A stretch of DNA of 32,000 nt from Candidatus Electronema aureum (GTDB taxonomy: Bacteria; Desulfobacterota; Desulfobulbia; Desulfobulbales; Desulfobulbaceae), in NCBI GenBank assembly GCA_004284765.1, contig NQJD01000008.1:60001-92000 (forward strand). Direction: 5' to 3'. Positions within the stretch are counted from its first letter, which is position 1. Each line of letters begins with the position of its first letter. Shown here piece after piece: positions 254 through 28,672 of the stretch. A program made the translations under genes and the position numbers. The notes below the pieces were generated by a model. The model did no database searches. It was not told the origin of the DNA and was given only the letters and a program-made list of their open reading frames with translations.

Positions 254-364
254 GGAGACACTACGGTGTCTCCAGTGGAGATACTAGGGTCACTCAGGGG
301 GAGACACTATAGTGTCTCGGTGGGAGATACCGTAGTGTCTCTGACGGAGATACCATAGTGTCTC
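254..364. repeat. Array of five contiguous palindromic units with an exact 23-bp period (GGAGAYAC-N3/4-GTGTCTC)
   Basis: Units start at 254, 277, 300, 323 and 346. Unit 1 is GGAGACAC-TACG-GTGTCTCC. Unit 3 contains the perfect 18-bp palindrome GAGACACTATAGTGTCTC (301..318). Unit 2 is degenerate. The leader CCGCAGGCACCCTCTGCC precedes the array, and a 12-bp palindrome CTCCAGCTGGAG follows at about 373..384. Confidence 0.9.
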
Positions 365-427
365 TTTTTGCGTCTCCAGCTGGAGAGGTTGGGGGACAGA
401 TCCACTCTCGCCAGCCCGTTTTTCCAG

Positions 428-456
428 TTGACAAAGACAGATATGCTGAGTAATAA
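428..456 (+). promoter_or_regulatory. Putative sigma70-type promoter for the 512..3977(5108) gene string
   Basis: TTGACA (428..433), a 17-nt spacer, then TAATAA (451..456), about 55 nt upstream of the ATG at 512. It lies immediately downstream of the palindromic array. The -35 reads TTGACAAAGAC, a one-base variant of the recurrent TTGACAAGAC. Confidence 0.45.
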
Positions 457-511: not shown

Positions 512-1201
512 ATGGATCATCTCGTAGTAGTGGGGTTTCTCGTCTATGCGGCACTGTTTCGCTTGGCGATTATCGCCACAGGCGTTGCAGCTATCGTCCT
601 CGGATACAAGCTGTTCTTGCGCGGCGTAATGGGCGAAGGCGGGACAAACGTCAACGCTGAGGCAGGGCCGATCAAGTTGACGCTTCATAACGCCGGGCCA
701 GGCGGAGTCTTTGCGCTGTTCGGCGCGGGTATTATCATAGTCATGCTTTCGCAGGGCAGCCCGGAACTCTTGATGAAGGATATGTCTCAGCTGACTGTAT
801 CTCCTCCTGATATGAACCAAAAGCCTGCGCATCAACAAGCATCTCAGCCTGAAAAAAGAGATGTGAGTACTGCTCTTCAAATACGCGGCGAAAATAACGA
901 TGACAAAGAGTGGAGCAAGCTAAATGAAAATGTAACCATGTCTGAAGCAGCAGAACCGTTGAGCAGCATTGCTCGTGTTTGGCTACAAGAAAAACGTACA
1001 GGTGAAGCTGTGGCAATGGCAAGATTGGCAGCATTTTATGGTTCGGAGAAGGATAAAGCAAACTATCATGCGCTGCTCGGTGAAGCGCTTTTTGAAAATG
1101 GCGATAAACAGAATGCTGTTAGTGCAATGCAAAAGGCGGCAGAGCGCGATCCACTTTATCGTGCGGCTTTAGCTCGAATGCAAGAACGTTTAGCAGAATG
1201 A
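512..1201 (+). CDS. Membrane protein with two predicted N-terminal TM helices and a TPR-like helical C-terminus
   Basis: Hydrophobic segments VVVGFLVYAALFRLAIIATGVAAIVLGY and GGVFALFGAGIIIVML. The C-terminus is helical and repeat-like (ALLGEALFENGDKQNAVSAMQKAAERDP). The stop overlaps the next start (ATGA at 1198..1201). Confidence 0.6.
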   Translation: MDHLVVVGFLVYAALFRLAIIATGVAAIVLGYKLFLRGVMGEGGTNVNAEAGPIKLTLHNAGPGGVFALFGAGIIIVMLSQGSPELLMKDMSQLTVSPPDMNQKPAHQQASQPEKRDVSTALQIRGENNDDKEWSKLNENVTMSEAAEPLSSIARVWLQEKRTGEAVAMARLAAFYGSEKDKANYHALLGEALFENGDKQNAVSAMQKAAERDPLYRAALARMQERLAE

Positions 1202-2517
1202 GAGGATTAGAGAAAATGGGTTGGTATAAGCAAAGGCAAGTCTTGTCGGTTCGGCTCGTGCTGCTTTTCGTTTTCCTTATGACAACAGCGGCAGTAAAAG
1301 AAGAGGCTGTCGCATCAAGTTTTGGTCGCTATCATGCTGTGGTGATTGGAAACCAAAACTATCAATATCTTGAGAAGTTGAACACACCTCTGAACGATGC
1401 ACGGGATATTGCACGGATATTGGAACAGCAGTACGATTTCAACGTGACGTTATTGCTGGATAAGAAGCGCGACGAGACAATGCGTTCCTTGTCAGAATTG
1501 CGTAGAACTATGGCCAAAGAAGATAATTTACTTATCTATTATGCTGGTCATGGAATTTTAGATGAAGATACTGATGTCGGCTACTGGCAGCCGATTGATG
1601 CTGACGATAGTGTTGTTAATTGGATTCCCTTTACTGATCTGATCACCTTGCTCAAAGGTCTTCAGGCGAACCATATTTTAGTAATTGCGGATTCCTGCTT
1701 CGCCGGTGCTCTTCAGATGACCAGAAACTCTGGGGCGGCTCTTGATTACGGCTCAGAGAGTTGGTTGCGTCGAATGCGTGAAAAGAAATCACGTACTGCT
1801 CTCACATCAGGCGGGATCGAAGATGTACTTGATGGAGGAGGTGGCAATCACTCGATTTTTGCAAAGGCTATCATTGATACATTACGAGAGAATAATACGA
1901 TATTGGATGGGCAAAGTCTATTTGATCAGGTCAAGCTGTTAGTTGTTAACAAGGCTGCTCAAACTCCAAACTATGATCCTATACGACTGACTGGCCACGA
2001 GTTTGGTGACTTTATTTTTATTCCAAAAGGACTCACTGAAACTTCTGTAGATAAGTCTCCAAAAGGTTCAATTCGCGATCTTACACGATCACCGAAGATC
2101 GATGAGGATAGGCGTGATTGGGAGATGCTCTCAAAGTTAGGTGAAGACGGATTAAAATCCTATCTCCTGCTGCACCAAGATGGCAAATGGGCCGGTGAGG
2201 CGCGTAAACGTATAGCTCGGTTGCAACCAAAATCGGAACCGCAGCGTCCAGTATCAGCGGCAAGAACGTTGACTCAGGCAGAAAAAGATCGGCTTGAGTC
2301 TGAGTGGCAGCGTGAGCAACATGCAAACAGTTCCTCTACGGCTCTGAATAGAACTGTGTCTAAGGAGGAGCAAGATCAGATTGATGATGAGTGGCAGAAG
2401 ATTCAAGGTGCTAGCACCTCCCATACCATCGAGGGGTTTCTTAGAATGTACCCTGTGGGCAGTCATGTGCCTGCTGTGCAGCAGAGGCTGGCAGAATTGC
2501 GTGCGCTCGGTCGATGA
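1198..2517 (+). CDS. Caspase-like peptidase (C14 family, orthocaspase/metacaspase-like) with an N-terminal signal or anchor and a C-terminal W-x-x-hQ repeat region
   Basis: Catalytic dyad context YYAGHG (His) and VIADSCFAG (Cys). The domain begins YHAVVIGNQNY. An N-terminal hydrophobic segment (LVLLFVFLMTTAAV) suggests export or membrane anchoring. The C-terminal half repeats DWEML / SEWQREQ / DEWQKIQ modules. The start could also be the M at 1216. Confidence 0.85.
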   Translation: MRGLEKMGWYKQRQVLSVRLVLLFVFLMTTAAVKEEAVASSFGRYHAVVIGNQNYQYLEKLNTPLNDARDIARILEQQYDFNVTLLLDKKRDETMRSLSELRRTMAKEDNLLIYYAGHGILDEDTDVGYWQPIDADDSVVNWIPFTDLITLLKGLQANHILVIADSCFAGALQMTRNSGAALDYGSESWLRRMREKKSRTALTSGGIEDVLDGGGGNHSIFAKAIIDTLRENNTILDGQSLFDQVKLLVVNKAAQTPNYDPIRLTGHEFGDFIFIPKGLTETSVDKSPKGSIRDLTRSPKIDEDRRDWEMLSKLGEDGLKSYLLLHQDGKWAGEARKRIARLQPKSEPQRPVSAARTLTQAEKDRLESEWQREQHANSSSTALNRTVSKEEQDQIDDEWQKIQGASTSHTIEGFLRMYPVGSHVPAVQQRLAELRALGR

Positions 2518-2548
2518 TTGTCTTGATGAATAATCATTGGTGGTTGAT

Positions 2549-3232
2549 ATGAAAACTGTACAATTCGGCATTGGAACGGCAGTATGTATTGCACTCAGCG
2601 GATGCACAGGCTTAGTAACCATGCCGAAGCTGGAAGGCTGCTATCCTGTGGATGCTCTTAGCGTATGGCAGCAGACTGCTCTTCATGTGGGGCGTGGCAA
2701 TCCGATACTTCTCATTGGTGGCAAGAAATTCGTGTGTACTTGCTATCAGGACAGCTCCTTGACCGGAATTGGTGAGAATGGCGGTGTGACCGGAATTGGC
2801 GAGAACGGCGGCGTGACCGGAATTGGCGAGAAAGGCGGTGTGACCGGCATTGGCGAGAAAGGCGGCGTGACCGGAATTGGTGAGAAAGGCGGCGTGACCG
2901 GAATTGGCGAGAAAGGCGGTGTGACCGGCATTGGTGAGAAAGGCGGCGTGACCGGTATTGGCGAGAAAGGCGGTGTGACCGGCATTGGCGAGAAAGGCGG
3001 CGTGACCGGCATTGGTGAGAAAGGCGGCGTGACCGGAATTGGTGAGAAAGGCGGCGTGACCGGAATTGGTGAGAAAGGCGGCGTGACCGGAATTGGTGAT
3101 TTTGCCGAATTCTCTTGCCGTATTGTGCCAGAGTGTCCGGGTTTTCAACTGATCGGCTATGGGCCGAAAGATGTCACGGTTCTTACTCCTGCCGGACAGA
3201 AGTCTGTCCCAGCAGGCTGCATCACTTGGTAA
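2549..3232 (+). CDS. Lipoprotein with 12.5 tandem nonapeptide repeats (T-GIGE[K/N]GGV)
   Basis: Signal peptide plus lipobox MKTVQFGIGTAVCIALSGC. The ORF track starts at TTG 2537, but ATG 2549 is more plausible. Twelve identical-length 9-aa repeats are flanked by Cys-containing N- and C-terminal segments. Confidence 0.75.
   Translation: MKTVQFGIGTAVCIALSGCTGLVTMPKLEGCYPVDALSVWQQTALHVGRGNPILLIGGKKFVCTCYQDSSLTGIGENGGVTGIGENGGVTGIGEKGGVTGIGEKGGVTGIGEKGGVTGIGEKGGVTGIGEKGGVTGIGEKGGVTGIGEKGGVTGIGEKGGVTGIGEKGGVTGIGEKGGVTGIGDFAEFSCRIVPECPGFQLIGYGPKDVTVLTPAGQKSVPAGCITW
2762..3099 (+). repeat. 27-bp tandem repeat, 12 full units plus a partial 13th, inside the lipoprotein CDS
   Basis: Units are ACCGGnATTGGyGAGAAnGGCGGyGTG starting at 2762 with an exact 27-bp period, so 3086-2762 = 324 = 12x27. 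Units differ only at unit positions 6, 12, 18 and 24, which are all third codon positions in the + frame. Confidence 0.95.
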
Positions 3233-3251
3233 ATTTCACTGAGAAGAGAGG

Positions 3252-3977
3252 ATGATAATGAAGAGATTTCCTGCTGTCTGTCTGCTTTCGCTGCCCATTC
3301 TGTCTGCCTGCGGCCCCTTGCCCCCTTTAGCAATAGATACGGGTGCGGGTGCGGCGCGGGCGTTGAACACCGTTGATTTGAGACAGCCTAATGTCACGCT
3401 CACATTTCTGTCCACCGGAAAAACGCACCGAACTGGCGATACGTTCCCTCCGCCGAAAACAATTGACTGTTCCCGTCTCAGGTTTGTCCCAGACGCATTC
3501 AAGGATGCCATTGAGGCTGGCGCACTCGTAGTACAGCTACAGACACCGCCAGAAGTCAAGAAGAAGGTCGTAGATAAAGATGGTAAAGAAACCATTGAGA
3601 TTGTGAAGATCAAACCAACTTACAGAGGCGTGCTAGCGTTGTGCAAAGTCTCCCCTCGTGCGACAGGGGCTGAGTCGCGAAGCTACCATATTCGCGATCT
3701 TGATGAATATCTTATTAAGGGTAAAGATAATCTGGTTTCTCTCGCCGTGGCACCACTGTCGCAGAGTAATCAGGCTGATCCATTCCAAGAATTGCTCAAT
3801 ATCAGTATGGGGCCTTCCTTTCAAGCCATCAGTGCAGGCAGGTCTTCCTACTCTTGGATGCTCTGGCTGACAGATAACCCGATAATCTTCACCGACTACG
3901 AGGCAGAGGTTGCCAGACGCAAAGCCTCAAAGCCCCGACCGACCACCCCAGCAGTGTCCACACCACGAACCCCGTAA
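3252..3977 (+). CDS. Lipoprotein of unknown function with a Pro/Thr-rich C-terminal tail
   Basis: RBS GAGAAGAGAGG. Signal peptide plus lipobox MIMKRFPAVCLLSLPILSAC. The C-terminus is KPRPTTPAVSTPRTP. I recognise no family. Confidence 0.6.
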   Translation: MIMKRFPAVCLLSLPILSACGPLPPLAIDTGAGAARALNTVDLRQPNVTLTFLSTGKTHRTGDTFPPPKTIDCSRLRFVPDAFKDAIEAGALVVQLQTPPEVKKKVVDKDGKETIEIVKIKPTYRGVLALCKVSPRATGAESRSYHIRDLDEYLIKGKDNLVSLAVAPLSQSNQADPFQELLNISMGPSFQAISAGRSSYSWMLWLTDNPIIFTDYEAEVARRKASKPRPTTPAVSTPRTP

Positions 3978-4040: not shown

Positions 4041-5108
4041 ATGCTGACGATTCTATGGCGACCTGCACCAAATGCCCTGACCACGCCCAAGTCCTACCGC
4101 ATCCAAGCTGTACCGCGCAGCACTGACGGCTACGACGAGATGGCGGCGGACATCTCCGCAGAGCAGCCCATCTACAGCGCGGAGACGGTCAAAGGGCTTG
4201 CGCCGCTGATGATGGAGTGGATTCAGCGGCGGATGATCAACGGCAGCCAAGTCACCTTTCCAGAATCCTTCAGCTTCCATGTCTCTTTCACCGGCAAGCT
4301 GGACAGCCCGGATGCTCCGCTGCCAGAGGGCAACGACCTGCTTCAGGTCAATGTGCGCGTCTCACAGCCTTTTGTCAAAGAGATACGGCATAAGGCCAAG
4401 CTCGAACGCCTGCCCGCGACCGAGAAGGCACCGGTGATCATCTCCGCCGAGGACACCCTGCTCAAGCTCAACGCGGTGCTCAATCCGGCAGGCGTGCTGC
4501 TGCTCACCGGCAACGACCTTGCTGCTGATCCGCAGAGCGCAGGCAGCGTGGTGATTGAAGGCACCCGGAACGGCAGCGCAGTGCAGACACGCCTGCTGCG
4601 GGTCGGACCAAGCGAGATCATGCTGATGCCGGACATCCCGGCGCAGGATAATTCGTGGAATAACGAATACACAGTCACGGTCAACGCCCGCTACAGCGAG
4701 CATGGCACGCCGCGCACCGGCACATGCAGCCGCAAGCTGCGCACGCCGCTGCTGATCAACGGGCTGGCGTTTGAGACCGGCCCCGGCATCCTCAGCGGTG
4801 AGACAGACGCGCCTACTGCGCGGTTGAGCAGCGGCACGGCCAGCGCGTCCGAGCTACTGCGCATTCAGGCTCTGGTGGACAGCCGCACCGGTCAGCTCAC
4901 CTTGCGCCTCCTCGACATGCAGGAAGGCGGCAGGGCAGGCGCGGCGGTCGCAGTGACAGTGGATGGAGACTACGAGCTGCCCGGCTTCAGCGGCTCGGCG
5001 GTGCAGTCGCTCACCATTGCGGTTGAGAATCTCGCCGGACTGATCAGCCTGACACGGGACAACTACAGCGGCAGACTGGTGGATGTGTTGGATGTGAGGA
5101 TAGAGTAA
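4041..5108 (+). CDS. HU-like (HU-HIG type) DNA-binding domain protein with a DUF4469-like Ig-fold region and an extra C-terminal domain; paralog 1
   Basis: The N-terminal pattern W-R-P-x-x-N-A-L-T-x-P-x-S-Y-R..V-P-R..G-Y-D-x-M-A..I, then ..NGSQVTF..F.F..S.TGK, matches my memory of the Bacteroidota-type HU-HIG plus DUF4469 architecture (VLNPxGVLxLTGxNL ... MPDIPAQ ... YS.HGTPRTG..RKLRTP). RBS GGAGAAC. It is a paralog of 19159..20235. Confidence 0.6.
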   Translation: MLTILWRPAPNALTTPKSYRIQAVPRSTDGYDEMAADISAEQPIYSAETVKGLAPLMMEWIQRRMINGSQVTFPESFSFHVSFTGKLDSPDAPLPEGNDLLQVNVRVSQPFVKEIRHKAKLERLPATEKAPVIISAEDTLLKLNAVLNPAGVLLLTGNDLAADPQSAGSVVIEGTRNGSAVQTRLLRVGPSEIMLMPDIPAQDNSWNNEYTVTVNARYSEHGTPRTGTCSRKLRTPLLINGLAFETGPGILSGETDAPTARLSSGTASASELLRIQALVDSRTGQLTLRLLDMQEGGRAGAAVAVTVDGDYELPGFSGSAVQSLTIAVENLAGLISLTRDNYSGRLVDVLDVRIE

Positions 5109-5204
5109 GGTCATCGTCCCGGCGGTCGTCCTGTTTGAGATAGGGTAGCCGCTGCCACCTTCCTTCCTCGCTCGGTTCTTCTCAGTCCGCAAGCACCCTC
5201 TGCT

Positions 5205-5241
5205 GGAGACACCCTAGTGTCTCTGGCGGAGATACCGTAGT
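5205..5241. repeat. Second copy of the 23-bp-phased palindromic array: 1 full unit and 1 truncated unit
   Basis: The same leader CCGCAAGCACCCTCTGCT (about 5187..5204) is followed by GGAGACACCCTAGTGTCTC (5205..5223) and GGAGATACCGTAGT (5228..5241). The second unit breaks off exactly where the MITE-type TIR begins at 5242. Confidence 0.85.
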
Positions 5242-5259
5242 ACCTAATGTGCAACTCTT
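5242..5259. mobile_element. Solo copy of the MITE terminal inverted repeat (ACCTAATGTGCAACTCTT)
   Basis: 18/18 identity with the left TIR of the element at 8433. It replaces the expected GTCTC end of palindromic unit 2. The internal sequence that follows is unrelated to the 8433 element, and no convincing partner TIR was found. Confidence 0.55.
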
Positions 5260-5445: not shown

Positions 5446-6057
5446 ATGAAAAGAACGATAGGTCTGCCGGTAATAGCTGCATTGTTTTTGCTGACATTAT
5501 GGCCAGCTCCTACGCTGGGGCAGTGGAACATGGGCAAGACGATTAAAGACCTGCTTACCAAACGAGCCGAAGCAAAAGAAGAAAAGAAGAATGCGCAAGA
5601 CCCTAAAAAGACACCAGCTCGTTTCAAGGACACCGGCGATGGTACCTTGACTGACAGTGCCACTGGCTTAATCTGGCTGAAAAATGCCAACTGCCCCGTC
5701 TTTTTCAAGGAAGATACCGCTACCAAGAACAGCCGCAAGTGGACGGATGCACGGGTCGCGGCCAGCCGCTTGGCTCATGGTTTCTGCGGCCTGTCCGATA
5801 GCTCCAAGCAAGGTGACTGGCGACTGCCTGATCGCGAGGAGCTACTCACTGTTGCTAAAGATATCACAGGTAAAGACAAATGGTTGGCTGGCAAAGCCTT
5901 CACCGGCATCCAACCATTCTATTACTGGTCATCCACTGTGGGCGACCTTTACCCAGACTACGCCTTTTATGTCGGCCTTGTCTATGGCATGGATAGCCAT
6001 GCCTTTCAGCTCAACAGCTTCCACGTGCTGCCAGTGCGGGGTAAGAAGAAGCCGTAG
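5446..6057 (+). CDS. Secreted DUF1566 (Lcl C-terminal / C-type-lectin-like fold) domain protein
   Basis: Signal peptide MKRTIGLPVIAALFLLTLWPAPTLG. The family hallmarks I recognise are RFKDTGDGTLTDSATGLIWLKNAN, WRLPDREELL and YYWSST. Confidence 0.8.
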   Translation: MKRTIGLPVIAALFLLTLWPAPTLGQWNMGKTIKDLLTKRAEAKEEKKNAQDPKKTPARFKDTGDGTLTDSATGLIWLKNANCPVFFKEDTATKNSRKWTDARVAASRLAHGFCGLSDSSKQGDWRLPDREELLTVAKDITGKDKWLAGKAFTGIQPFYYWSSTVGDLYPDYAFYVGLVYGMDSHAFQLNSFHVLPVRGKKKP

Positions 6058-7962: not shown

Positions 7963-9282
7963 TTATTCAATATTCCCGCTCCGCTGCACCCGTGCTGTGC
8001 TCTCTGGGGCAATGTACCATGCTCCCCCAGTATTGCCACGAAGGTCATTATCCTCGAAGATGCCGCCTCCATCTAAAATCACCGCAATACCCACACTGCT
8101 GTTCTGCGTGATGCGGTTGCGGCGCAGGATCGGGTTGCTGTCTGTCCTAATAATTAAGTTGCCGCCTGTCGTAATTACGCCTGGCATGATCTCCACGCCA
8201 GGCCCCTCATTGGCGAATATCTCGTTGTCCTCCAGCGTCGCTTGGCTGTTCCTCATATAAATGCCGCCTCCGCTGTATATCGACGAAAGAAAACCAAAGC
8301 GGCCATTCATAAAGATACGGTTGCGGCGCAGGGTTGGGTTGCTGCCTGACATGATAATACCGTATAGTACGCCGTCAAATATCTCGTTGTCCTCCAGCGT
8401 CCCTTGACCATTCTCCATAAAGATACAGTAACACCTAATGTGCAACTCTTTTTAGCTTACAAGTTACACGAAATATCCTCTTGAAAATACAGGAATTGTA
8501 CTGAACAGCCGATATTGAAAACACCAGAGATCGTATGCGCAATGGGTTTGCTTTAAAACATTTCAGCAAATGAGAGCCTACTGTTTCCCGGCAAACTTCC
8601 TGATTATGTGCAGACGGCGAGATGCCCAAGTTGGGATCACAATCAAATTAAAATTGCAGTAAGACTGTCTTCAGCGACACACTATCCCAAAAAGAGTTGC
8701 ACATTAGGTACAGTAACTATTCCCGCCATGAATGCGACAGCGGCGGATGAGTGGAGTTGCGCCCTTGTGGATTCTCACGCAGTCATTACCGCTGCCTGAA
8801 ATGTCGCAATCCTCTAGTTCAAGCTTGCCCTTGGCAATCGCGACACAGCAATACAGAGTTAGGTTGGCGATCCGTCCATTCTCTGCGTCAAACCGAACGG
8901 CATTGCTGCCATCACCTGCAATCATAATGTCGCTTCGCTCCCCTTCTCCTATGATCTCGACTGGTTTGTCAATCACTATGCTTTCTTTGTACAAACCAGG
9001 CCGAACAAAGATTCGGGTGCCTGCTTTTACGGCCTTTAGCGCATTAGTGATTGTTGCATAGTCGTCGTGATTGGACGAATCCACCACCACGGTTGGTGGC
9101 CCGTTCGCATACTTATCATCCTTATTCACATAGCTCAGAAAGGCAAGTGGTGTCCGGCTCAATTCGGGTTCCTCCGCAGCGGTGTTGGTTGCTTGTTCCT
9201 GCATCAGCCGCATAATAACTGCGTTTCTGCCGCGCTGCAAGCGGTTCAGACTGCGGCGCGGCTGGTGACGGCACGGCATCAC
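7963..9282 (-). pseudogene. Right-handed parallel beta-helix repeat protein, interrupted by a MITE-like insertion
   Basis: The N-terminal part (8704..9282) contains TRIFVRPGLYKESIVIDKPVEIIGEG and beta-helix turns. The C-terminal part (7963..8445) contains repeated ATLEDNEIF / NPxLRRNRI turns. Removing 8433..8709 plus one copy of the 8-bp duplication rejoins them in frame as ...IHGGNSYC-IFMENGQGTLEDNEIF..., about 344 aa. Confidence 0.85.
8433..8709. mobile_element. 277-bp non-autonomous MITE-like element with 21-bp perfect TIRs and an 8-bp target-site duplication
   Basis: The left TIR ACCTAATGTGCAACTCTTTTT (8433..8453) is the exact reverse complement of 8689..8709. The direct repeat ACAGTAAC flanks it at 8425..8432 and 8710..8717. 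It has no transposase-sized ORF. The host frame terminates at a TAA inside the TIR. Confidence 0.88.
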
Positions 9283-9604
9283 TGCCAGCGACGGCCTGCT
9301 ATCATCCTCAGTGATGCTACGCTGCCACCCTAAGCAACACTATGCTGTCACTGCACGCGCCAGTGTAGGGGGAAAAATCTTTTACCCTTGTTGGCAATAC
9401 CGGGCCGGTGCAGGAACATCACGCCCAACTCCCCAAGGCAACGCGGCAGCGGAGGGCTTGCAAAGCGTCTCCACTCTGCAAGCCGGACACAAAAAAGGCT
9501 TGCCTGTAGCGCCCATCTTCATTAATGTTCGGGCTATTTCTTTTCTGCGCAGACCCGTACTTTTTGCCCAAGGCCAAGCCGCTGAATCCTGCCGAGACTC
9601 CATC

Positions 9605-12418: not shown

Positions 12419-13525
12419 TTACCATCCTAATAAATTAAACACACATTCGTTTGCACTTACAGCATCTGCCAAGTTGGTTTGAAATTTAAAAAAAGATGAA
12501 AATATGCTACCCCATCCTGCTTCATATGAAATATTTATTTGTTTTCCGCAGAATTGGTATGTCGCAAATGTATTTGCTGCACCTATAAAATTATTAATTA
12601 AAATTACATTTCCTATAAAAGGGAGTCTTGAGAGAGGAAACTTTGTTGAAAAAACAGAAACGGCATCAGAAATACAAGTTATAACTGAGGACATGTCGCA
12701 GTATGCTTCTTTATAGCTCTTTCCAAGATTTCTTTCTCCGCATATTTTATTTAAATATTCGTCAACAACAGGAAATTCTTGAGTAGATGCATTGTATTCT
12801 GTTCCAGAATTTAGCCTGTCTTGGCATTTTTTAAAAAAATCACTACTGTCATCTTGATATATTTCAGAATAATGTATCATTTTAGATAAAACCCCTAACC
12901 ATCCACTCCATTTATACCACGCTTCAGAACATTCTCTATACCATTCTCTATAGCATTGACTGTTTTCGTCAACATGATCACAAAATCTACTTGCGCTTGC
13001 AAGTGAATACAGGTAACTGCCATTGCCTGTATCATATCTGTTAACCTCGCACGCATAAAGCATATCTATATCATGCGTTGTTGTTACGCTGCAATTATTA
13101 ATGAATAATTGCATTATTTCGAAATAATCATCACTCTGTCTTATTAATTTTTCAAAATAGCTTGACATATAATGAGACTCGCAGAAAGAAGTAAGTCTTT
13201 CGATAGATTCGTAATTTTCTTTGTAATTTTGTATGAAAAATTCTTTATTATAATTTAGAACAACTGGAATTCCAGCTACGCGTTTTGATAATGGAAATAT
13301 CAAACAAAAAGAAAGACTTTCTATTTTATTTCTTATTTCTTCTTCTTTTCTTCTTCTCATCTCTTTATCCTTATCGTCAAAAAATGCTGCACCCGCAGAA
13401 GAGACTAATAGGACAAACAGGAAGGCAAGAAAAAATGAGCAGCGGGACAGGAAAGATATAGACCGCAAAGACATGATCATTCTCCAAAAAAGAGTGTTAC
13501 GGAGCGGACAAGCAGGACTTTTCAT
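12419..13525 (-). CDS. Orphan Cys-rich protein with an N-terminal signal or anchor, encoded in a strongly AT-rich island
   Basis: A long ORF lies in a segment (about 12360..13530) whose base composition is far more AT-rich than its flanks. The N-terminal hydrophobic segment is FFLAFLFVLLVSSAGA. The protein has many Cys, Tyr and Asn. I recognise no family. The start is uncertain (M at 13525, or MSLRS about 18 codons in). Confidence 0.6.
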   Translation of the reverse strand: MKSPACPLRNTLFWRMIMSLRSISFLSRCSFFLAFLFVLLVSSAGAAFFDDKDKEMRRRKEEEIRNKIESLSFCLIFPLSKRVAGIPVVLNYNKEFFIQNYKENYESIERLTSFCESHYMSSYFEKLIRQSDDYFEIMQLFINNCSVTTTHDIDMLYACEVNRYDTGNGSYLYSLASASRFCDHVDENSQCYREWYRECSEAWYKWSGWLGVLSKMIHYSEIYQDDSSDFFKKCQDRLNSGTEYNASTQEFPVVDEYLNKICGERNLGKSYKEAYCDMSSVITCISDAVSVFSTKFPLSRLPFIGNVILINNFIGAANTFATYQFCGKQINISYEAGWGSIFSSFFKFQTNLADAVSANECVFNLLGW

Positions 13526-17133: not shown

Positions 17134-18615
17134 CTACTCGTAACGGGCGGCCCAAATATCGTACTCGCTGATATCACGACCAAACATATTGGGGCGGAAA
17201 TCGTCAGTTTGGAGCCAGATGGCAAGAGCATTGCCCGCCGCATCAATCGCGATCTGAGGAACTTCCGCATTGTCTGCGTCGGTCGTGATGGACTGGGCCT
17301 TCTCCCAGCCGCTGCCAAGGACATATCGACTGGCCCGGATATTGCAACCATTAACGACAATACCAGTTGGCTTGCTGCTGCACTGGCTCCAAACAGCAAG
17401 GGCATTGCCTGCTCTGTCGAAAGCGATCTTGGGATGATACGCATGGTTCATGGCAGCACCGGTTTCGATGCGCTGGGCCTTCTGCCAGCCGACATCTGCT
17501 GTGTAACGGTTGAACCAGAGGTTGGTCCGGTCGGCATCACGCTGACACTCGGACCAGACAGCAAGGCCATTGCCCGCTCCATCGAAGGCGACCTCAGGAG
17601 GTTCCGCACAGCCTGGTGCGCCGTTATTGATGCGCTGGGCTTTCTGCCAGCCGTTGCCTGCCACATAACGGTTGCTCCAGATATTATCCTCATGCCCGTT
17701 GTCGCGTTGCTGCCAAACAACAAGGGCGTTGCCAGCTTCATCCACAGCAATCTCGTGATTCGGACTTGCATTCTTCTTGATGATCTGTGCCTTCTGCCAG
17801 CCCTTGCCGACCTCATAGCGGTTAGACCAGAGATTTGTACACGTGGGATCTTCATCTTTCCCCCAGACGGCAATGGCGTTGCCTTTTTTGTCCATTGCAA
17901 CTTTGAGAAGTTTTGGATGGACATTGACACCTATAACATCAGTGCCCCCAGCATCGGTCGCTATAAATTGGATATCACCCCAGCTTTTGCCTGACATGTA
18001 GTATTTAGCTATAATATTTCCTTCTAAAGTCCAAGCAACAACAACATTGCCTGCTTTATTCATTGCAATCCTGAGATCGGATACAGAATTAGCATTTTTA
18101 GAATTGAATAAACCGTTAAAGAGGCTGGTCTCCTTGATTACCTGTGCCTCCTGCCAGTCTTTACCAGACTCGTAGCGATCAGTCCATATTTTGCCACTCC
18201 GACTCGAAGCAACAATGGCATTTCCACGTCCATCAATTGCAACATTGGAATGGTATATGTCGTTGATTTGAATTGACCGAGCTGTTCCCCAGCCTCTGCC
18301 GGCCTTGTAACTATTGATCCACATATTTCTGCGGTCGTTGTCACTCTTCCACATATTTCCGCTGTTGTTGTCACTCTGATTCCAGAAAACAATGACATCA
18401 CCAGCCTCGTTGAACGAAACTTCGAGACTGTACTTTTCGGCATCATCACCAGCTTTGATATGTTTAGGAGCATGCCATGTCTTTTTATTCGCCGGTGCTG
18501 CCGGGGTGGTGCGGTCGAGCACATCAGCGGCACCGCCTGCTGGAACAGCAAGGCAGAGAGACGCAAGGATGGCCTTGCTGACAACGGTTCGGGCAAAGAA
18601 GGAGTTACGTCTCAT
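17134..18615 (-). CDS. Secreted protein with about 8 tandem 45-50-aa repeats, likely a beta-propeller-like fold
   Basis: Signal peptide MRRNSFFARTVVSKAILASLCLAVPAGGAA. The repeat signature hxhAhDxxGNAhxVW...NhWxNRYxxGxGWQKAQxI recurs 8 times. I recognise no family name. Confidence 0.75.
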   Translation of the reverse strand: MRRNSFFARTVVSKAILASLCLAVPAGGAADVLDRTTPAAPANKKTWHAPKHIKAGDDAEKYSLEVSFNEAGDVIVFWNQSDNNSGNMWKSDNDRRNMWINSYKAGRGWGTARSIQINDIYHSNVAIDGRGNAIVASSRSGKIWTDRYESGKDWQEAQVIKETSLFNGLFNSKNANSVSDLRIAMNKAGNVVVAWTLEGNIIAKYYMSGKSWGDIQFIATDAGGTDVIGVNVHPKLLKVAMDKKGNAIAVWGKDEDPTCTNLWSNRYEVGKGWQKAQIIKKNASPNHEIAVDEAGNALVVWQQRDNGHEDNIWSNRYVAGNGWQKAQRINNGAPGCAEPPEVAFDGAGNGLAVWSECQRDADRTNLWFNRYTADVGWQKAQRIETGAAMNHAYHPKIAFDRAGNALAVWSQCSSKPTGIVVNGCNIRASRYVLGSGWEKAQSITTDADNAEVPQIAIDAAGNALAIWLQTDDFRPNMFGRDISEYDIWAARYE

Positions 18616-18754
18616 CGCGTCACCTCAGGTGATAATTTTCAGCGGCACCGCCTGCTGGAACAGCAAGGCAGAGAGACGCAAGGATGGCCTTGCTGACAAC
18701 GGTTCGGGCAAAGAAGGAGTTACGTCTCATCGCGTCACCTCAGGTGATAATTTT
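18525..18754. repeat. Perfect tandem duplication (2 x 115 bp) spanning the RBS, start codon and signal-peptide codons of the 17134..18615 gene
   Basis: 18525..18639 and 18640..18754 are identical by eye. The second copy gives a decoy ATG at 18730..18728 that opens a 36-codon ORF (MRRNSFFARTVVSKAILASLCLAVPAGGAAENYHLR). That ORF stops in the AGGTGA Shine-Dalgarno, 4 nt before the authentic ATG at 18615. Confidence 0.93.
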
Positions 18755-18778: not shown

Positions 18779-18808
18779 AGAATATTGGCTCGGTGCGTGT
18801 CTTGTCAA
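18779..18808 (-). promoter_or_regulatory. Putative sigma70-type promoter with the extended -35 TTGACAAGAC, on the minus strand
   Basis: The minus strand reads TTGACA (18808..18803), an 18-nt spacer, then TATTCT (18784..18779). It lies upstream of the duplicated 5' region of the repeat-protein gene. Confidence 0.4.
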
Positions 18809-18860: not shown

Positions 18861-19008
18861 ACAGGTTAAGCTCCTGCTCTGGACAGGCTATGCACAGAGG
18901 GAGCATAACGTTATGCTCCTGCCGAGCTTAACCTGTCTACAGCACGAGCATAGGCTATGGTTTGCGCCTGCCATAGCCTATGCTCTTTAATCACCATAGC
19001 CTATGTTC
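18861..19008. repeat. Cluster of palindromes and inverted repeats of a second type (GAGCATA-N-TATGCTC / CCATAGCCTATGYTC)
   Basis: - Perfect 18-bp palindrome GAGCATAACGTTATGCTC at 18901..18918.
- It is nested in the 13-bp inverted repeat ACAGGTTAAGCTC (18861..18873) / GAGCTTAACCTGT (18924..18936).
- GAGCATAGGCTATGG (18946..18960) is the exact inverted repeat of CCATAGCCTATGCTC (18971..18985).
- A third copy, CCATAGCCTATGTTC, sits at 18994..19008, which is 23 bp after the second. Confidence 0.8.
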
Positions 19009-19072
19009 TGGCAAAGGCATGGGGCATCCTCTGGCAAAAATGCTCTGCGCTCCAGCATTGTTGACAATTCCA

Positions 19073-19101
19073 TTGACAAGACCGCAGCACCGTTTTAATC
19101 T
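19073..19101 (+). promoter_or_regulatory. Putative sigma70-type promoter with the extended -35 TTGACAAGAC
   Basis: TTGACA (19073..19078), a 17-nt spacer, then TAATCT (19096..19101), about 57 nt upstream of the ATG at 19159. A second TTGACA lies at 19061. Confidence 0.45.
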
Positions 19102-19158
19102 GCGGGAAAGCGGCAGCATCCTCCCTCCTTATCCCACCTTTCTTACAGGAGAACCAGC

Positions 19159-20235
19159 ATGACAACCATTCAATGGCGGCCCCAAGTCAATGCCCTCACC
19201 AAGCCCCAATCCTACCGCCCGCAAGTGGTGCCGCGCGGCACATCCGGCTACGACAAGATGGCTGTCGACATCTCGACTGCTCATCCGGTGTATAACGCTG
19301 ACCTGATTCGCTCGGTCGCGCCGCTGATCATGGACTGGATACAGCAGGAGCTGATCAGCGGCTTGCAGGTGACGCTGGAGGATGCCTTCACCTTTCATCC
19401 CTCGATGACTGGAAAAATGGCCGGGCCGGATGACCCGCTGCCGAATGCCAATGAGCTGCTGCAAGTCAATGTGTACGCCGCCCGCGCCTTTGTCCAAGCT
19501 GTCCGCCAAAAGGCCAAGCTGGAGCGGCTGCCGATGAATGAGAAGCTGCCGCAGGTCACGTCAAGCGAAGACACCAAGCTCAAGCTGGCCGATGTCCTCA
19601 ACCCGAACGGCGTGCTGCGCCTGACCGGCAGCAATCTCTGGTTTGATGAGAACGACCCGGACAGCGGCTGCACCATCAGCGGCACCCAGAGCGGCGTGAA
19701 AAAGCAGAGCACCTTCGCCTCAGTCTCCAACAGCGAGATACTGCTGGTGCCGGACATCCCGGCTCAGGCCCATCCGTGGAACAACGAATGCGCCTTGAGC
19801 CTCACCACCCAATATACCGCGCACGGCACACCGCGCACCGGCATCTACCGCAGGCGGCTGCGCAGCCCGCTCACTGCGACGAAGATGGGCCACCCTAATC
19901 CGCCGGAGACCGGTATTCTTAGTGGCAATGGAGCCAGCCCCTTGGTCAGCATCAAGGGAGGGACGGTCTCGACAGACGAGCGGCTGCGCATTCAGGCGGT
20001 TCTTGACGTGCAGGCAGACCGGCTGCTCTTCAGCTTGCTGGATATGAAGGAAAATGGCGCGGCAGGAGCAGAGGTGCCTGTGGCTGCGAACGGGAGCTTC
20101 ACCCTGCAAGGCTTCAGCGGCTCGGCAGTCAGCAGTTTGACGATCAGCGTGAATGACTATGCCAGCCTGAAGAAGCTGGTTCACGATCAGTACAGCGGCA
20201 GGCTGGTTGATATACTGGATGTGAAGGTGGCGTGA
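19159..20235 (+). CDS. HU-like (HU-HIG type) DNA-binding domain protein with a DUF4469-like region; paralog 2
   Basis: It is collinear with 4041..5108 (MTTIQWRPQVNALTKPQSYRPQVVPRGTSGYDKMAVDIS... against MLTILWRPAPNALTTPKSYRIQAVPRSTDGYDEMAADIS...). It shares VLNPNGVLRLTGSNL, VPDIPAQ, YTAHGTPRTG and the C-terminal YSGRLVDxLDVxx. Identity is roughly 45-50% by eye. Confidence 0.6.
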   Translation: MTTIQWRPQVNALTKPQSYRPQVVPRGTSGYDKMAVDISTAHPVYNADLIRSVAPLIMDWIQQELISGLQVTLEDAFTFHPSMTGKMAGPDDPLPNANELLQVNVYAARAFVQAVRQKAKLERLPMNEKLPQVTSSEDTKLKLADVLNPNGVLRLTGSNLWFDENDPDSGCTISGTQSGVKKQSTFASVSNSEILLVPDIPAQAHPWNNECALSLTTQYTAHGTPRTGIYRRRLRSPLTATKMGHPNPPETGILSGNGASPLVSIKGGTVSTDERLRIQAVLDVQADRLLFSLLDMKENGAAGAEVPVAANGSFTLQGFSGSAVSSLTISVNDYASLKKLVHDQYSGRLVDILDVKVA

Positions 20236-26997: not shown

Positions 26998-27182
26998 GAA
27001 AATAAGGGATGCTGCTTATTAACTGAGCGGGGTGCCGAACTTTCTGGTTGGTGCGGGTAGATTTATCCCGCGCCGGAAAGTTGAGAAAAGCCACAGCCGT
27101 CGCGAGGCGGTGTCGGAAAGCCACGGGTCTCCATTTTGGAGACAGCCGGGTTGCCTGCTTCACATATACCAGGGAGGGTATC

Positions 27183-27875
27183 ATGAAAACAACTCAAACA
27201 ACATTAGGAGGAAAATCAAGTTTACAGAAAAGAATGACTGCGCTGGCCGGAATTCTGTTGGCCGCCGCCCTCGGTGCCTGCCAAGCCAAGCCGGAGTCTG
27301 CTCTTTCTGTCCCTCATGCCGACACAGTCAGCAATGCTGATCAAAGCGGCTGGATTTCATTAAGCAATGTGGTGTCGGAAGCTGAAGCGGCCACAGCTGC
27401 TCCTGCCGCCGGTTACGGAGGCAAAGGAACAGTTGATCCGGCAGCAATGGTGGCAGCGCATAATCGTTGGCGGACAAAAGTCGGTGTATCATCCGGACTC
27501 AGGTGGTCGGACAAGCTGGCTGGCGTGGCTCAAGGCTGGGCGAATCAGCTGAAAAACGAAGGCTGCGCTATGTACCACAGCGGCAATGGCTACGGTGAGA
27601 ACATTTACAAAGCCAGCGCACTGATGTGGTCGGATGGTCGTCGCGATTTACAGAAGAAAACACCGCAGCAGGTCACGGACAGCTGGGGCAGCGAAATCAA
27701 ATTCTACGATTACGAGAGCAACAGCTGTAGCGGAGTCTGTGGTCATTACACCCAAGTAGTGTGGAAAAACACCCAAGAAGTCGGCTGCGCCATGTCGGTC
27801 TGTGGCGACAATTCGCAAATTTGGGTATGCAGTTACTATCCCGCAGGCAACGTAGTTGGTCGCAAACCGTACTGA
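27183..27875 (+). CDS. CAP/SCP/PR-1 superfamily lipoprotein, paralog 1
   Basis: RBS GGGAGGG. The lipobox is LAAALGAC. CAP motifs are AAHNRWRTKVGV, GYGENIY, HYTQVVWKNTQEVGCA and VCSYYPAGNVVG. Confidence 0.85.
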   Translation: MKTTQTTLGGKSSLQKRMTALAGILLAAALGACQAKPESALSVPHADTVSNADQSGWISLSNVVSEAEAATAAPAAGYGGKGTVDPAAMVAAHNRWRTKVGVSSGLRWSDKLAGVAQGWANQLKNEGCAMYHSGNGYGENIYKASALMWSDGRRDLQKKTPQQVTDSWGSEIKFYDYESNSCSGVCGHYTQVVWKNTQEVGCAMSVCGDNSQIWVCSYYPAGNVVGRKPY

Positions 27876-28045: not shown

Positions 28046-28672
28046 ATGATCACAAAGAAAACATTGAGCATTCTCCCTTCATCTTTTTTTCTCTCTATCT
28101 TCTGTCTTGCTGCCTGCGGCCAAACCCAGACCATCCGCGTGGATGTGTCTGCCGATCATCCTGACGGCGTTGTGCTGTTAGATGGGTATTATGAAGAAAC
28201 TGATACCTTTGCCGAAGGAGTAGGCACGGTTGATTCGACCGTGATGCTGGCCACCCACAACCGCTGGCGTTCTGAAGTCGGCGTTCCTGATCTCGTTTGG
28301 TCGGAATCTTTAGCCCAAGCTGCACAAAGTTGGGCTGATCATCTGAGCAACAACGGCTGCTGCGCTATGTCTCACAGCGACAGCGGCTATGGCGAAAATA
28401 TTTACAAAGTCAGTGCCGTGGTTTGGTCGAACGGTCGCCGGGAAATTCAGAGCAGAAGTCCGCAGCAGATCGTTGACGGCTGGGCCAGTGAAGCCAAGGA
28501 CTATGATTACGAAAACAACACCTGCAACGGCATTTGCGGTCATTACACTCAAATAGTCTGGCGTGACACCACAGAAATAGGTTGTGCAGTTGCCGTTTGC
28601 CCGGATAAATCGCAGATGTTGGTCTGCAATTACGCGCCGACTGGCAATGTTGAAGGGCAAAAACCGTATTGA
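28046..28672 (+). CDS. CAP/SCP/PR-1 superfamily lipoprotein, paralog 2
   Basis: The lipobox is SIFCLAAC. CAP motifs are ATHNRWRSEVGV, GYGENIY, HYTQIVWRDTTEIGCA and VCNYAPTGNVEG. It is collinear with 27183..27875. Confidence 0.85.
   Translation: MITKKTLSILPSSFFLSIFCLAACGQTQTIRVDVSADHPDGVVLLDGYYEETDTFAEGVGTVDSTVMLATHNRWRSEVGVPDLVWSESLAQAAQSWADHLSNNGCCAMSHSDSGYGENIYKVSAVVWSNGRREIQSRSPQQIVDGWASEAKDYDYENNTCNGICGHYTQIVWRDTTEIGCAVAVCPDKSQMLVCNYAPTGNVEGQKPY

Follow-up and report, generated by a model that had tools for sequence, protein, structure and literature searches.

One question raised by the 32-kb stretch of Candidatus Electronema aureum DNA considered here (contig NQJD01000008.1, positions 60,001 to 92,000; hereafter the window) is why palindromes should be lined up at a regular 23-bp spacing ahead of genes of the HU-HIG/DUF4469 family, and what reads them. 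The window carries two genes of this family, paralog 1 and paralog 2, which are the only members that tblastn finds within it, and directly upstream of paralog 2 lies the array, array 2, with which the question begins. HU-HIG/DUF4469 proteins have undergone large and fast-evolving expansions that have no known function, and the sole published analysis of them argued against sequence-specific regulation. The answer put forward here, which on comparative sequence evidence we hold to be slightly better than an even bet, is that each paralog, as a dimer, occupies its own array and thereby exerts feedback on the promoter of its own gene. Array 2 and paralog 2 would then be one pair within an expansion of three-domain HU-HIG/DUF4469 proteins that appears specific to cable bacteria. 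An earlier, sequence-only reading of the window had proposed a private operator for each paralog, an interpretation to which the analysis lends partial support.

What does array 2 consist of? At its heart is GAGCATAACGTTATGCTC, a perfect 18-bp palindrome at 18901-18918 and the sole match in the window at up to three mismatches (0.03 expected). It is joined by three copies of CCATAGCCTATGYTC, at 18946-18960 (minus strand), 18971-18985 and 18994-19008, the last two 23 bp apart, where 0.10 matches would be expected and none of 100 shuffles reaches three. The palindrome and the three copies had been picked out by the sequence-only reading, and all were recovered where it had placed them. The remaining slots hold two degenerate units (18881-18895 and 18924-18941) and, outermost, a half-site (18861-18873). 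Set out in 23-bp rows, the region has some seven slots in all, centred at about 18864.5, 18887, 18909.5, 18932.5, 18954, 18977 and 19000. The window has seven TATGCTC heptamers, and four of these cluster within 18901-18985. The GAGCATAACGTTATGCTC palindrome also lies at the middle of a longer inverted repeat, an imperfect one whose 55-nt arms are 75% complementary, and is flanked by the arms ACAGGTTAAGCTC and GAGCTTAACCTGT. Tandem Repeats Finder (TRF) gives no call for array 2.

The array stands ahead of a predicted promoter of the sigma-70 type (Table 1), which a generic scan missed because its -10 element matches at only three of six positions, and which, with a predicted start near 19108, is followed by a predicted 5' untranslated region of about 50 nt with a ribosome-binding site, AGGAGA, at 19147-19152. 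A promoter-like site on the far side of the array points the other way, and with promoters diverging from both flanks array 2 therefore falls in what is probably an untranscribed spacer. In the paralog 2 orthologs at the related loci L001-L003 (74-86% identity) the GAGCATAACGTTATGCTC dyad is kept at exactly -258 from the ATG.

How general is this arrangement? The comparison set comprised 59 related loci retrieved in one genome scan, and every one of them, like every named homolog, belongs to Ca. Electronema, Ca. Electrothrix or metagenome-assembled genomes (MAGs) of Desulfobulbaceae, with as many as 14 loci in one MAG. When the 400 bp upstream of 54 loci were searched for 18-bp palindromes with no more than one mismatched pair, such a sequence was present at 24, against an estimated chance of about 0.04 per locus. 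A typical array has four to nine units, each an 18-bp dyad with a 5-bp linker, in slots that at most loci run from -305 to -121 relative to the ATG, and 31 arrays with at least four units share this frame to within about 3 bp. Relative to the predicted start the arrays span roughly -60 to -250, and in well-preserved cases 15-20 bp separate the end of the last unit from the -35 element downstream. TTGACA is found in 18 of 18 aligned paralog upstream regions, with a 17-nt spacer and a TAnnnT -10 element that is invariant or nearly so, after which come about 50 nt of leader and the ribosome-binding site GGAGA. A scan for 23-bp (lag-23) periodicity, done blind over 369 kb, places 35 of its 48 strong regions at -420 to -60 of a family gene, the remainder being mostly N runs or distal arrays of the family. 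The geometry that the sequence-only reading saw as common to both window arrays, 18-bp dyads with a 23-bp period, thus extends across loci, in a fixed register to an invariant promoter.

Within this constant frame it is the sequence of the dyad that changes. Units differ among paralog lineages, for instance ATTGCACTCCCGTGCAAT, ATCCCAAACGTTTAGGAT, CTCCATGCATGCATGGAG, GACTTACCTGCGTAAGTC and CAACACACTGGTATGTTG, and orthologs from different species agree; more than 20 lineages each have a different dyad-symmetric array in the one register and with the one promoter. Across 377 kb searched, each operator consensus matches essentially its own or orthologous arrays only. Operator-arm identity falls from 0.81 at less than 15% protein distance to 0.32, the random level, at more than 50%, and in a Mantel test of arm against protein divergence none of 2000 permutations reaches the observed value. 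Dyad symmetry of the consensus is kept in every lineage (5.9 of 9 pairs), and within arrays the 18-bp unit is conserved at 0.70-0.90 per position, as against 0.58 for the 5-bp linker. As the dyad is conserved while the linker drifts, selection would appear to act on the dyad itself, beyond anything due to tandem duplication.

A quite different account would have the palindromes act as hairpins, whether RNA stem-loops, terminators or cruciforms, or would treat them as products of chance or slippage that have no specific reader. Each unit could fold into a hairpin (7-bp stem, 4-nt loop), the last unit of the other gene-associated array in the window (array 1, described below) scores with its T-run as a terminator, as do its counterparts at L050 and L057, and some arrays, such as that of L022, hold exact 23-bp tandem copies of the kind typical of slippage. 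However, among deviations from the consensus within arrays 184 break the pairing and only 17 are compensatory, and because pairing is broken far more often than it is kept, protein half-sites fit these data and hairpins do not. The counts also lie far above chance, the arms, unlike the drifting linkers, are conserved, the arrays have no Rfam match, and in the window they are upstream of promoters in both directions and probably untranscribed. Taken together, these observations make the hairpin account scarcely credible.

The arrays are not confined to close relatives of paralog 2. A distant Electrothrix subfamily, 25-30% identical to it, also has 23-bp upstream arrays, which makes the architecture an old one within the clade. 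These arrays lie at 2242-2380 of L065, where the unit GAnCATGCTCrGrrTyrAACGrT occurs in six copies and includes a 10-bp palindrome, and at 2288-2380 of L066. The two Bacteroidetes loci of the 4FMR family that were examined have no phased 23-bp array such as accompanies the cable-bacterial genes; each has instead a single perfect GC-rich hairpin with 17-18-bp arms, about 75-115 bp before the start codon (L061 1849-1888, L063 1880-1925). Two metagenome scans for distant relatives returned no matches, and such distant relatives as could be traced are again from cable bacteria.

A further class of perfect 18-bp palindrome, GGCNNTTCNNGAANNGCC (for example GGCAATTCATGAATTGCC), occurs near several paralog loci of different genomes at variable positions (L004 2699, L007 1205, L010 5921, L021 813, L033 1559, L038 6389 and 6458, L046 2788) and has no copy in the window; its reader may be some further shared factor or a single 'master' paralog.

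What, then, reads the arrays? At the related loci no other gene family is consistently linked to them, TPR proteins being no more than occasional neighbours, and it is for this reason that the paralog itself is taken as the candidate binder, which would act as a cooperative dimer and regulate its own gene. A homodimer would bind each 18-bp dyad by its 7-bp arms, which enclose a 4-bp centre, and the four to nine dyads, set 23 bp or about 2.2 helical turns apart, would load cooperatively to give a nucleoprotein array. Lying just upstream of the -35 element, this assembly would feed back on its own gene and possibly on the divergent neighbour; both window arrays are between divergent promoters, and the neighbouring genes may therefore be co-regulated. 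That the array lies upstream of -35 and off the core promoter is a mild pointer to activation or upstream wrapping. Following duplication, co-divergence of array and protein would produce mutually insulated protein-site pairs. As in autoregulators, the dyads lie next to the gene's own promoter, and the sites co-vary across paralogs and are conserved among orthologs.

Binding of this kind could also serve architecture. The paralog might use its own array as a cis nucleation or centromere-like site, or as an element that structures the chromosome locally, and not as an operator. The HU-like bender would then build up a higher-order complex there, and proximity to the gene would reflect only co-inheritance and co-translational loading. 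The HU/IHF-like fold would suit such a role, as would the placing of the window arrays between divergent promoters, and four to nine phased sites are more than an operator typically needs; operator pairs, moreover, are found at the 3' ends of units too (window 5206-5246, L003 6393-6433). Yet at 31 loci or more the arrays stand in a fixed register to an invariant promoter, which speaks for a promoter-coupled role, and no ParA-like or other partner gene is linked, so that a purely architectural function seems unlikely.

Is the protein of a kind that could bind DNA in this way? The Pfam matches of paralog 2 fall just short of threshold, with HU-HIG (PF18291) at 25.0 bits for a cut-off of 26.2 and DUF4469 (PF14734) at 22.0 for a cut-off of 22.6, and that of paralog 1 is weak (E 0.016), although precomputed PF18291, PF14734 or PF14848 matches exist for many close homologs and for the distant cable-bacterial subfamily. 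The AlphaFold2 model of paralog 2 (predicted local distance difference test, pLDDT, 88) comprises a hairpin, an HU core, an immunoglobulin-like (Ig) domain and a C-terminal beta-rich domain. With Foldseek its best match is 4FMR (HU+Ig; E 2e-10), followed by HU/IHF chains with template-modelling (TM) scores of 0.70-0.78 and a probability of 1.0, and a family profile matches the 4FMR sequence over residues 38-223 (E 2e-4). Paralog 2 is thus predicted to have an HU-type fold followed by an Ig-like domain; the C-terminal beta-rich domain has no sequence match in the PDB. The HU-like nature of the N-terminal domain had been called by the sequence-only reading, and the near-threshold Pfam scores, the 4FMR profile match and the predicted fold agree with it. 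Its estimate that the paralogs are about half identical was equally sound, the alignment giving 52% identity across 357 residues (E 3e-130). A 368-aa open reading frame (ORF) at 12419-13525, considered as a third paralog in the window, was rejected as unrelated to the family.

Several observations weigh against the binding of each array by its own paralog, and some of them would favour the alternative that the arrays are bound by one or more factors encoded elsewhere, or are intrinsic DNA elements, with an HU-HIG protein that reads no sequence. The proteins are acidic, having a mean isoelectric point of 5.2 and a mean net charge of about -1.8 in the N-domain, and the HU arm TGKMAGPDDPLPNANEL ('GPDDPLP') has a net charge of -2 and a tip, PDDPLP, that is conserved across paralogs. 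The trait of classical HU and IHF, a basic protein whose proline-tipped arm is also basic and touches the minor groove, is not found in the cable-bacterial family, and with an acidic, conserved arm the classical HU/IHF arm cannot be the specificity determinant. In their analysis of 4FMR, Burroughs et al. 2017 (PMC5499826) argued for a clasp occluded by the Ig domain, considered HU-HIG proteins unlikely to be sequence-specific transcription factors and proposed a role in biological conflict. No specificity-determining residues can be localised, the fixed differences being scattered along the protein. Array 2 is itself irregular, with one perfect dyad and otherwise several half-sites, the paralog 1 relatives at L050 and L057 have the family promoter and lack a proximal array, and neither of the two Bacteroidetes relatives examined has an array. 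Finally, co-divergence of gene and array is also expected from shared ancestry alone, and what would argue for selection is just the persistence of dyad symmetry, together with the difference in conservation between arms and linkers. Of these points, the acidic proteins with their conserved arm tip, the occluded clasp and the paralog-1-type genes without a proximal array would all suit a reader encoded elsewhere. Such a reader would nonetheless have to cope with more than 20 dyad sequences, all of which a single global factor cannot read and which would demand an equally diverse second family, and none is linked; dyad symmetry is kept, moreover, lineage by lineage. We rate this alternative as distinctly improbable.

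If the paralog does read DNA, which part of it would do so? The sequence-only reading had looked to orthologs for an upstream palindrome that co-varies with the DNA-binding arm, and only half of this expectation holds: the array does co-vary with paralog lineage, whereas co-variation of the arm with the operator, sought in close paralog groups that have different operators, was rejected, the arm tip being invariant. Fixed differences that recur between such groups fall at positions 9, 17, 40-42, 96-97 and 112-118, with many in the C-terminal domain. Candidates for the reading element are the N-terminal hairpin, which is basic, the C-terminal domain, which diverges fast, and helix 3.

Table 1 Features of the window, with the domains of paralog 2 given as residues.
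Feature	Position	Strand	Details
Array 1	255..364		five 18-bp units, 23-bp period, class GAGACAC-TATA-GTGTCTC
Promoter-like site after array 1	428..456	+	TTGACA 428-433, 17-nt spacer, TAATAA 451-456
Cargo genes between array 1 and paralog 1	512..3977	+	four genes
TPR protein	512-1201	+	cargo gene
Caspase-like peptidase C14	1198-2517	+	cargo gene
Two unknown proteins	2537-3232 and 3252-3977	+	cargo genes
Paralog 1	4041..5108	+	355 aa, 52% identical to paralog 2
Mini-array	5206..5246		two array-1-type units, GAGACACCCTAGTGTCTC (5206) and GAGATACCGTAGTACCTA (5229)
Orphan array	9266..9352		four units, 23-bp phase, GTGAC..GTCAC class
Divergent promoter-like site	18779..18808	-	TTGACA-16/18-AATATT/TATTCT; for minus-strand gene 17134-18615
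Array 2	18861..19008		about 7 slots, 22-23 bp period, half-site GAGCATA/TATGCTC
Predicted sigma-70-type promoter of paralog 2	19073..19101	+	TTGACA 19073-19078, 17-nt spacer, TAATCT 19096-19101
Paralog 2	19159..20235	+	358 aa
Paralog 2, N-terminal beta-hairpin	residues 4-23
Paralog 2, HU-like core	residues 30-120
Paralog 2, Ig-like DUF4469	residues 132-236
Paralog 2, extra C-terminal beta-rich domain	residues 238-358

Array 1 is built on the same plan. Its GAGACACTATAGTGTCTC-type units begin at 255, 278 (degenerate), 301 (perfect), 324 and 347, and a search of the window with this 18-mer gives five matches (255, 301, 324, 347 and 5206) against 0.00 expected. TRF reports a period of 23 with 4.8 copies at 254-364 and again with 1.9 copies at 5198-5241, and all eight GAGACAC heptamers of the window fall within array 1 or the region of the mini-array. 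The palindromes and 23-bp phasing that the sequence-only reading ascribed to paralog 1 are thus real, but a direct association upstream of that gene is not, array 1 being 3.7 kb upstream of it and ahead of a promoter and four other genes. The site at 428-456 heads a plus-strand gene run that ends with paralog 1, and a divergent minus-strand promoter lies beside the array at 173-146. The PADLOC defence-system search gave a single match, a generic caspase one, which falls in this run. The mini-array is found about 100 bp past the stop codon of paralog 1, ahead of an Lcl_C gene at 5446, and the sequence on the left flank of array 1, gcaNgcaccctctgc, is repeated before it (5184-5223), so that array-type sequence brackets the cargo genes and paralog 1.

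A GAGACAC-class array 1.1-2.2 kb upstream, past unrelated genes, is found at L050 (1740-1873) and L057 (1768-1947) and also at L017 (797-906), which holds a separate paralog; these arrays are orthologous to array 1, and the intervening genes differ and are unrelated among the window and the three loci. L023 and L026 have a similar distal array with a different dyad. Paralog 1 belongs to a sub-type in which variable cargo genes separate the array from its gene.

Two observations belong to this part of the window and its counterparts. The last GAGACAC-type unit is followed by a T-run (GTGTCTCTTTTTGC; window 346-375, L050 1857-1880, L057 1930-1955) with a terminator-like score, and may have a dual role in ending transcription from upstream. 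Within the unknown ORF at 2537-3232 a 27-bp tandem repeat (2760-3099; 12.6 copies, 93% identity) encodes a 9-aa repeat.

Variable cargo invites the idea of a mobile or rearranging cassette, whose ends or recombination sites the arrays would supply as binding sites for a recombination machinery, with the HU-like protein as accessory bender and cargo inserted beside it. The ends of Tn7 or Mu, for instance, carry 22-bp transposase sites. For this idea there are the direct repeats of the array 1 left boundary, which bracket a 5-kb segment (TPR, caspase, unknowns and paralog 1), the unrelated cargo in the window, L050, L057 and L017, and the many loci that lie at contig ends; a homology break exactly at the edge of the orphan array, considered below, is of the same kind. 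On the other hand, the loci have no transposase or recombinase as a regular neighbour, synteny of the paralog 2 locus with a radical-SAM gene is kept in L001 and L002, most arrays are in promoter register and not at element termini, and the units are dyads, unlike transposon end sites. A mobile cassette is accordingly a very unlikely explanation of the arrays.

A pair of dyads past the 3' end of a family gene is seen a second time at L003 (6393-6433), where the paralog-2-type dyads GAGGACAACGTTATCCTC and GAGCATAACGTTGTCCTC are spaced by 23 bp. On one side of this pair is the 3' end of a TPR gene, itself just after the paralog 2 ortholog, and on the other that of a gene for prephenate dehydratase, a placement that mirrors that of the mini-array downstream of paralog 1.

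What becomes of an array that has no gene? The orphan array offers one case. The sequence at 9099-9353 aligns at 79% identity to sequence upstream of a Ca. Electronema nielsenii paralog (L043), the homology stops at the array edge, with folE2 next in the window, and tblastn finds no paralog gene or remnant beside it there. Perfect half-sites number two of eight in the orphan array, against six of eight in its gene-linked ortholog at L043. Decay of this sort is as expected if upkeep of an array depends on its cognate gene, a fit that is suggested by a small sample; that the array persists at all without its gene would suit a reader encoded elsewhere.

How does the proposed pairing of array and paralog compare with known systems? 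The nearest relatives are Bacteroidetes proteins that combine HU-HIG or HU-DNA_bdg with DUF4469 (BVU_2165, PDB 4FMR; PMC5499826), in which an HU-like core is likewise followed by an Ig-like DUF4469. Both groups have an N-terminal 'N.LT.P.SY..rv.P' extension, many fast-diverging paralogs per genome and no conserved operon partners, but the cable-bacterial family, whose hosts are Desulfobulbaceae, is only 16-17% identical to 4FMR and has some 120 aa more at the C-terminus, which form a beta-rich domain.

The HU fold is shared with IHF, and IHF and sequence-preferring members of the HU family are dimers that bend DNA, can read sequence and act as architectural co-regulators upstream of promoters. 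IHF, however, is basic, with a proline-tipped basic arm and an asymmetric site of about 30 bp that is usually single, whereas the cable-bacterial proteins are acidic, have a PDDPLP tip and are accompanied by symmetric 18-mers in arrays of 4-9. Omega of pSM19035, with its heptad arrays, ParR, with the parC iterons, and the ParG/CopG-type proteins are cooperative and autoregulated, and their sites and proteins co-evolve. The resemblance to these is one of functional analogy only and lies in the close phased repeats directly upstream of the regulator's own promoter: they are ribbon-helix-helix proteins, plasmid-borne and often with ParA or ParM, while the cable-bacterial family is HU+Ig and has up to 14 chromosomal paralogs with no NTPase family common to the loci. 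In the window the chromosomal context includes a tRNA synthetase, folE2 and radical-SAM genes nearby. The lambdoid phage repressors and diversified TetR/LacI paralogs have, after duplication, come to use a private dyad operator upstream of their own gene. Here too the likeness is a functional analogy only, as these are helix-turn-helix proteins with 1-3 operators, and the cable-bacterial proteins are HU-like, with 23-bp phased arrays in fixed register.

The pairing of arrays and paralogs would thus bring a known principle, that of private operator-regulator pairs and repeat-array operators, to proteins with no previously proposed DNA site. No paper was found that connects cable bacteria with DUF4469/HU-HIG or describes 23-bp arrays, and to our knowledge cable bacteria are not yet open to pure culture or genetic manipulation. 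The arrays predict a cognate site for every paralog and so form a ready-made specificity table. Should the prediction be right, the HU-HIG/DUF4469 family would gain a function, and with it would come a natural system for the divergence of DNA specificity after duplication on an HU scaffold and a set of potentially orthogonal protein-operator pairs. The finding hints at an unexplored regulatory layer in cable bacteria. A bolder extension, which we think doubtful, is that each cable bacterium has some 10-15 orthogonal, self-recognising HU-HIG regulators, each with its private array, which act as heritable on/off switches (by positive autoregulation, for example) and encode cell states of the multicellular filament or gate the caspase/TPR cargo operons. 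This would be the first evidence of DNA sequence reading by the HU-HIG/DUF4469 superfamily.

Two minor observations concern other parts of the window. The start of the minus-strand gene 17134-18615, from its ribosome-binding site through the start codon to a signal-peptide-like N-terminus, lies in an exact 115-bp tandem duplication at 18524-18753, whose upstream copy gives a 36-aa out-of-frame decoy ORF (MRRNSFFARTVVSKAILASLCLAVPAGGAAENYHLR*); the duplication may be genuine or have arisen in assembly. Finally, a cyclic di-GMP riboswitch of the c-di-GMP-I-UAU class (Rfam RF03168) is matched at 27081-27159 (plus strand) with 66.3 bits for a gathering score of 65.9, and overlaps the predicted 5' end of a CAP-domain ORF (27048-27875), which is followed by a second CAP-domain gene at 28046-28672.

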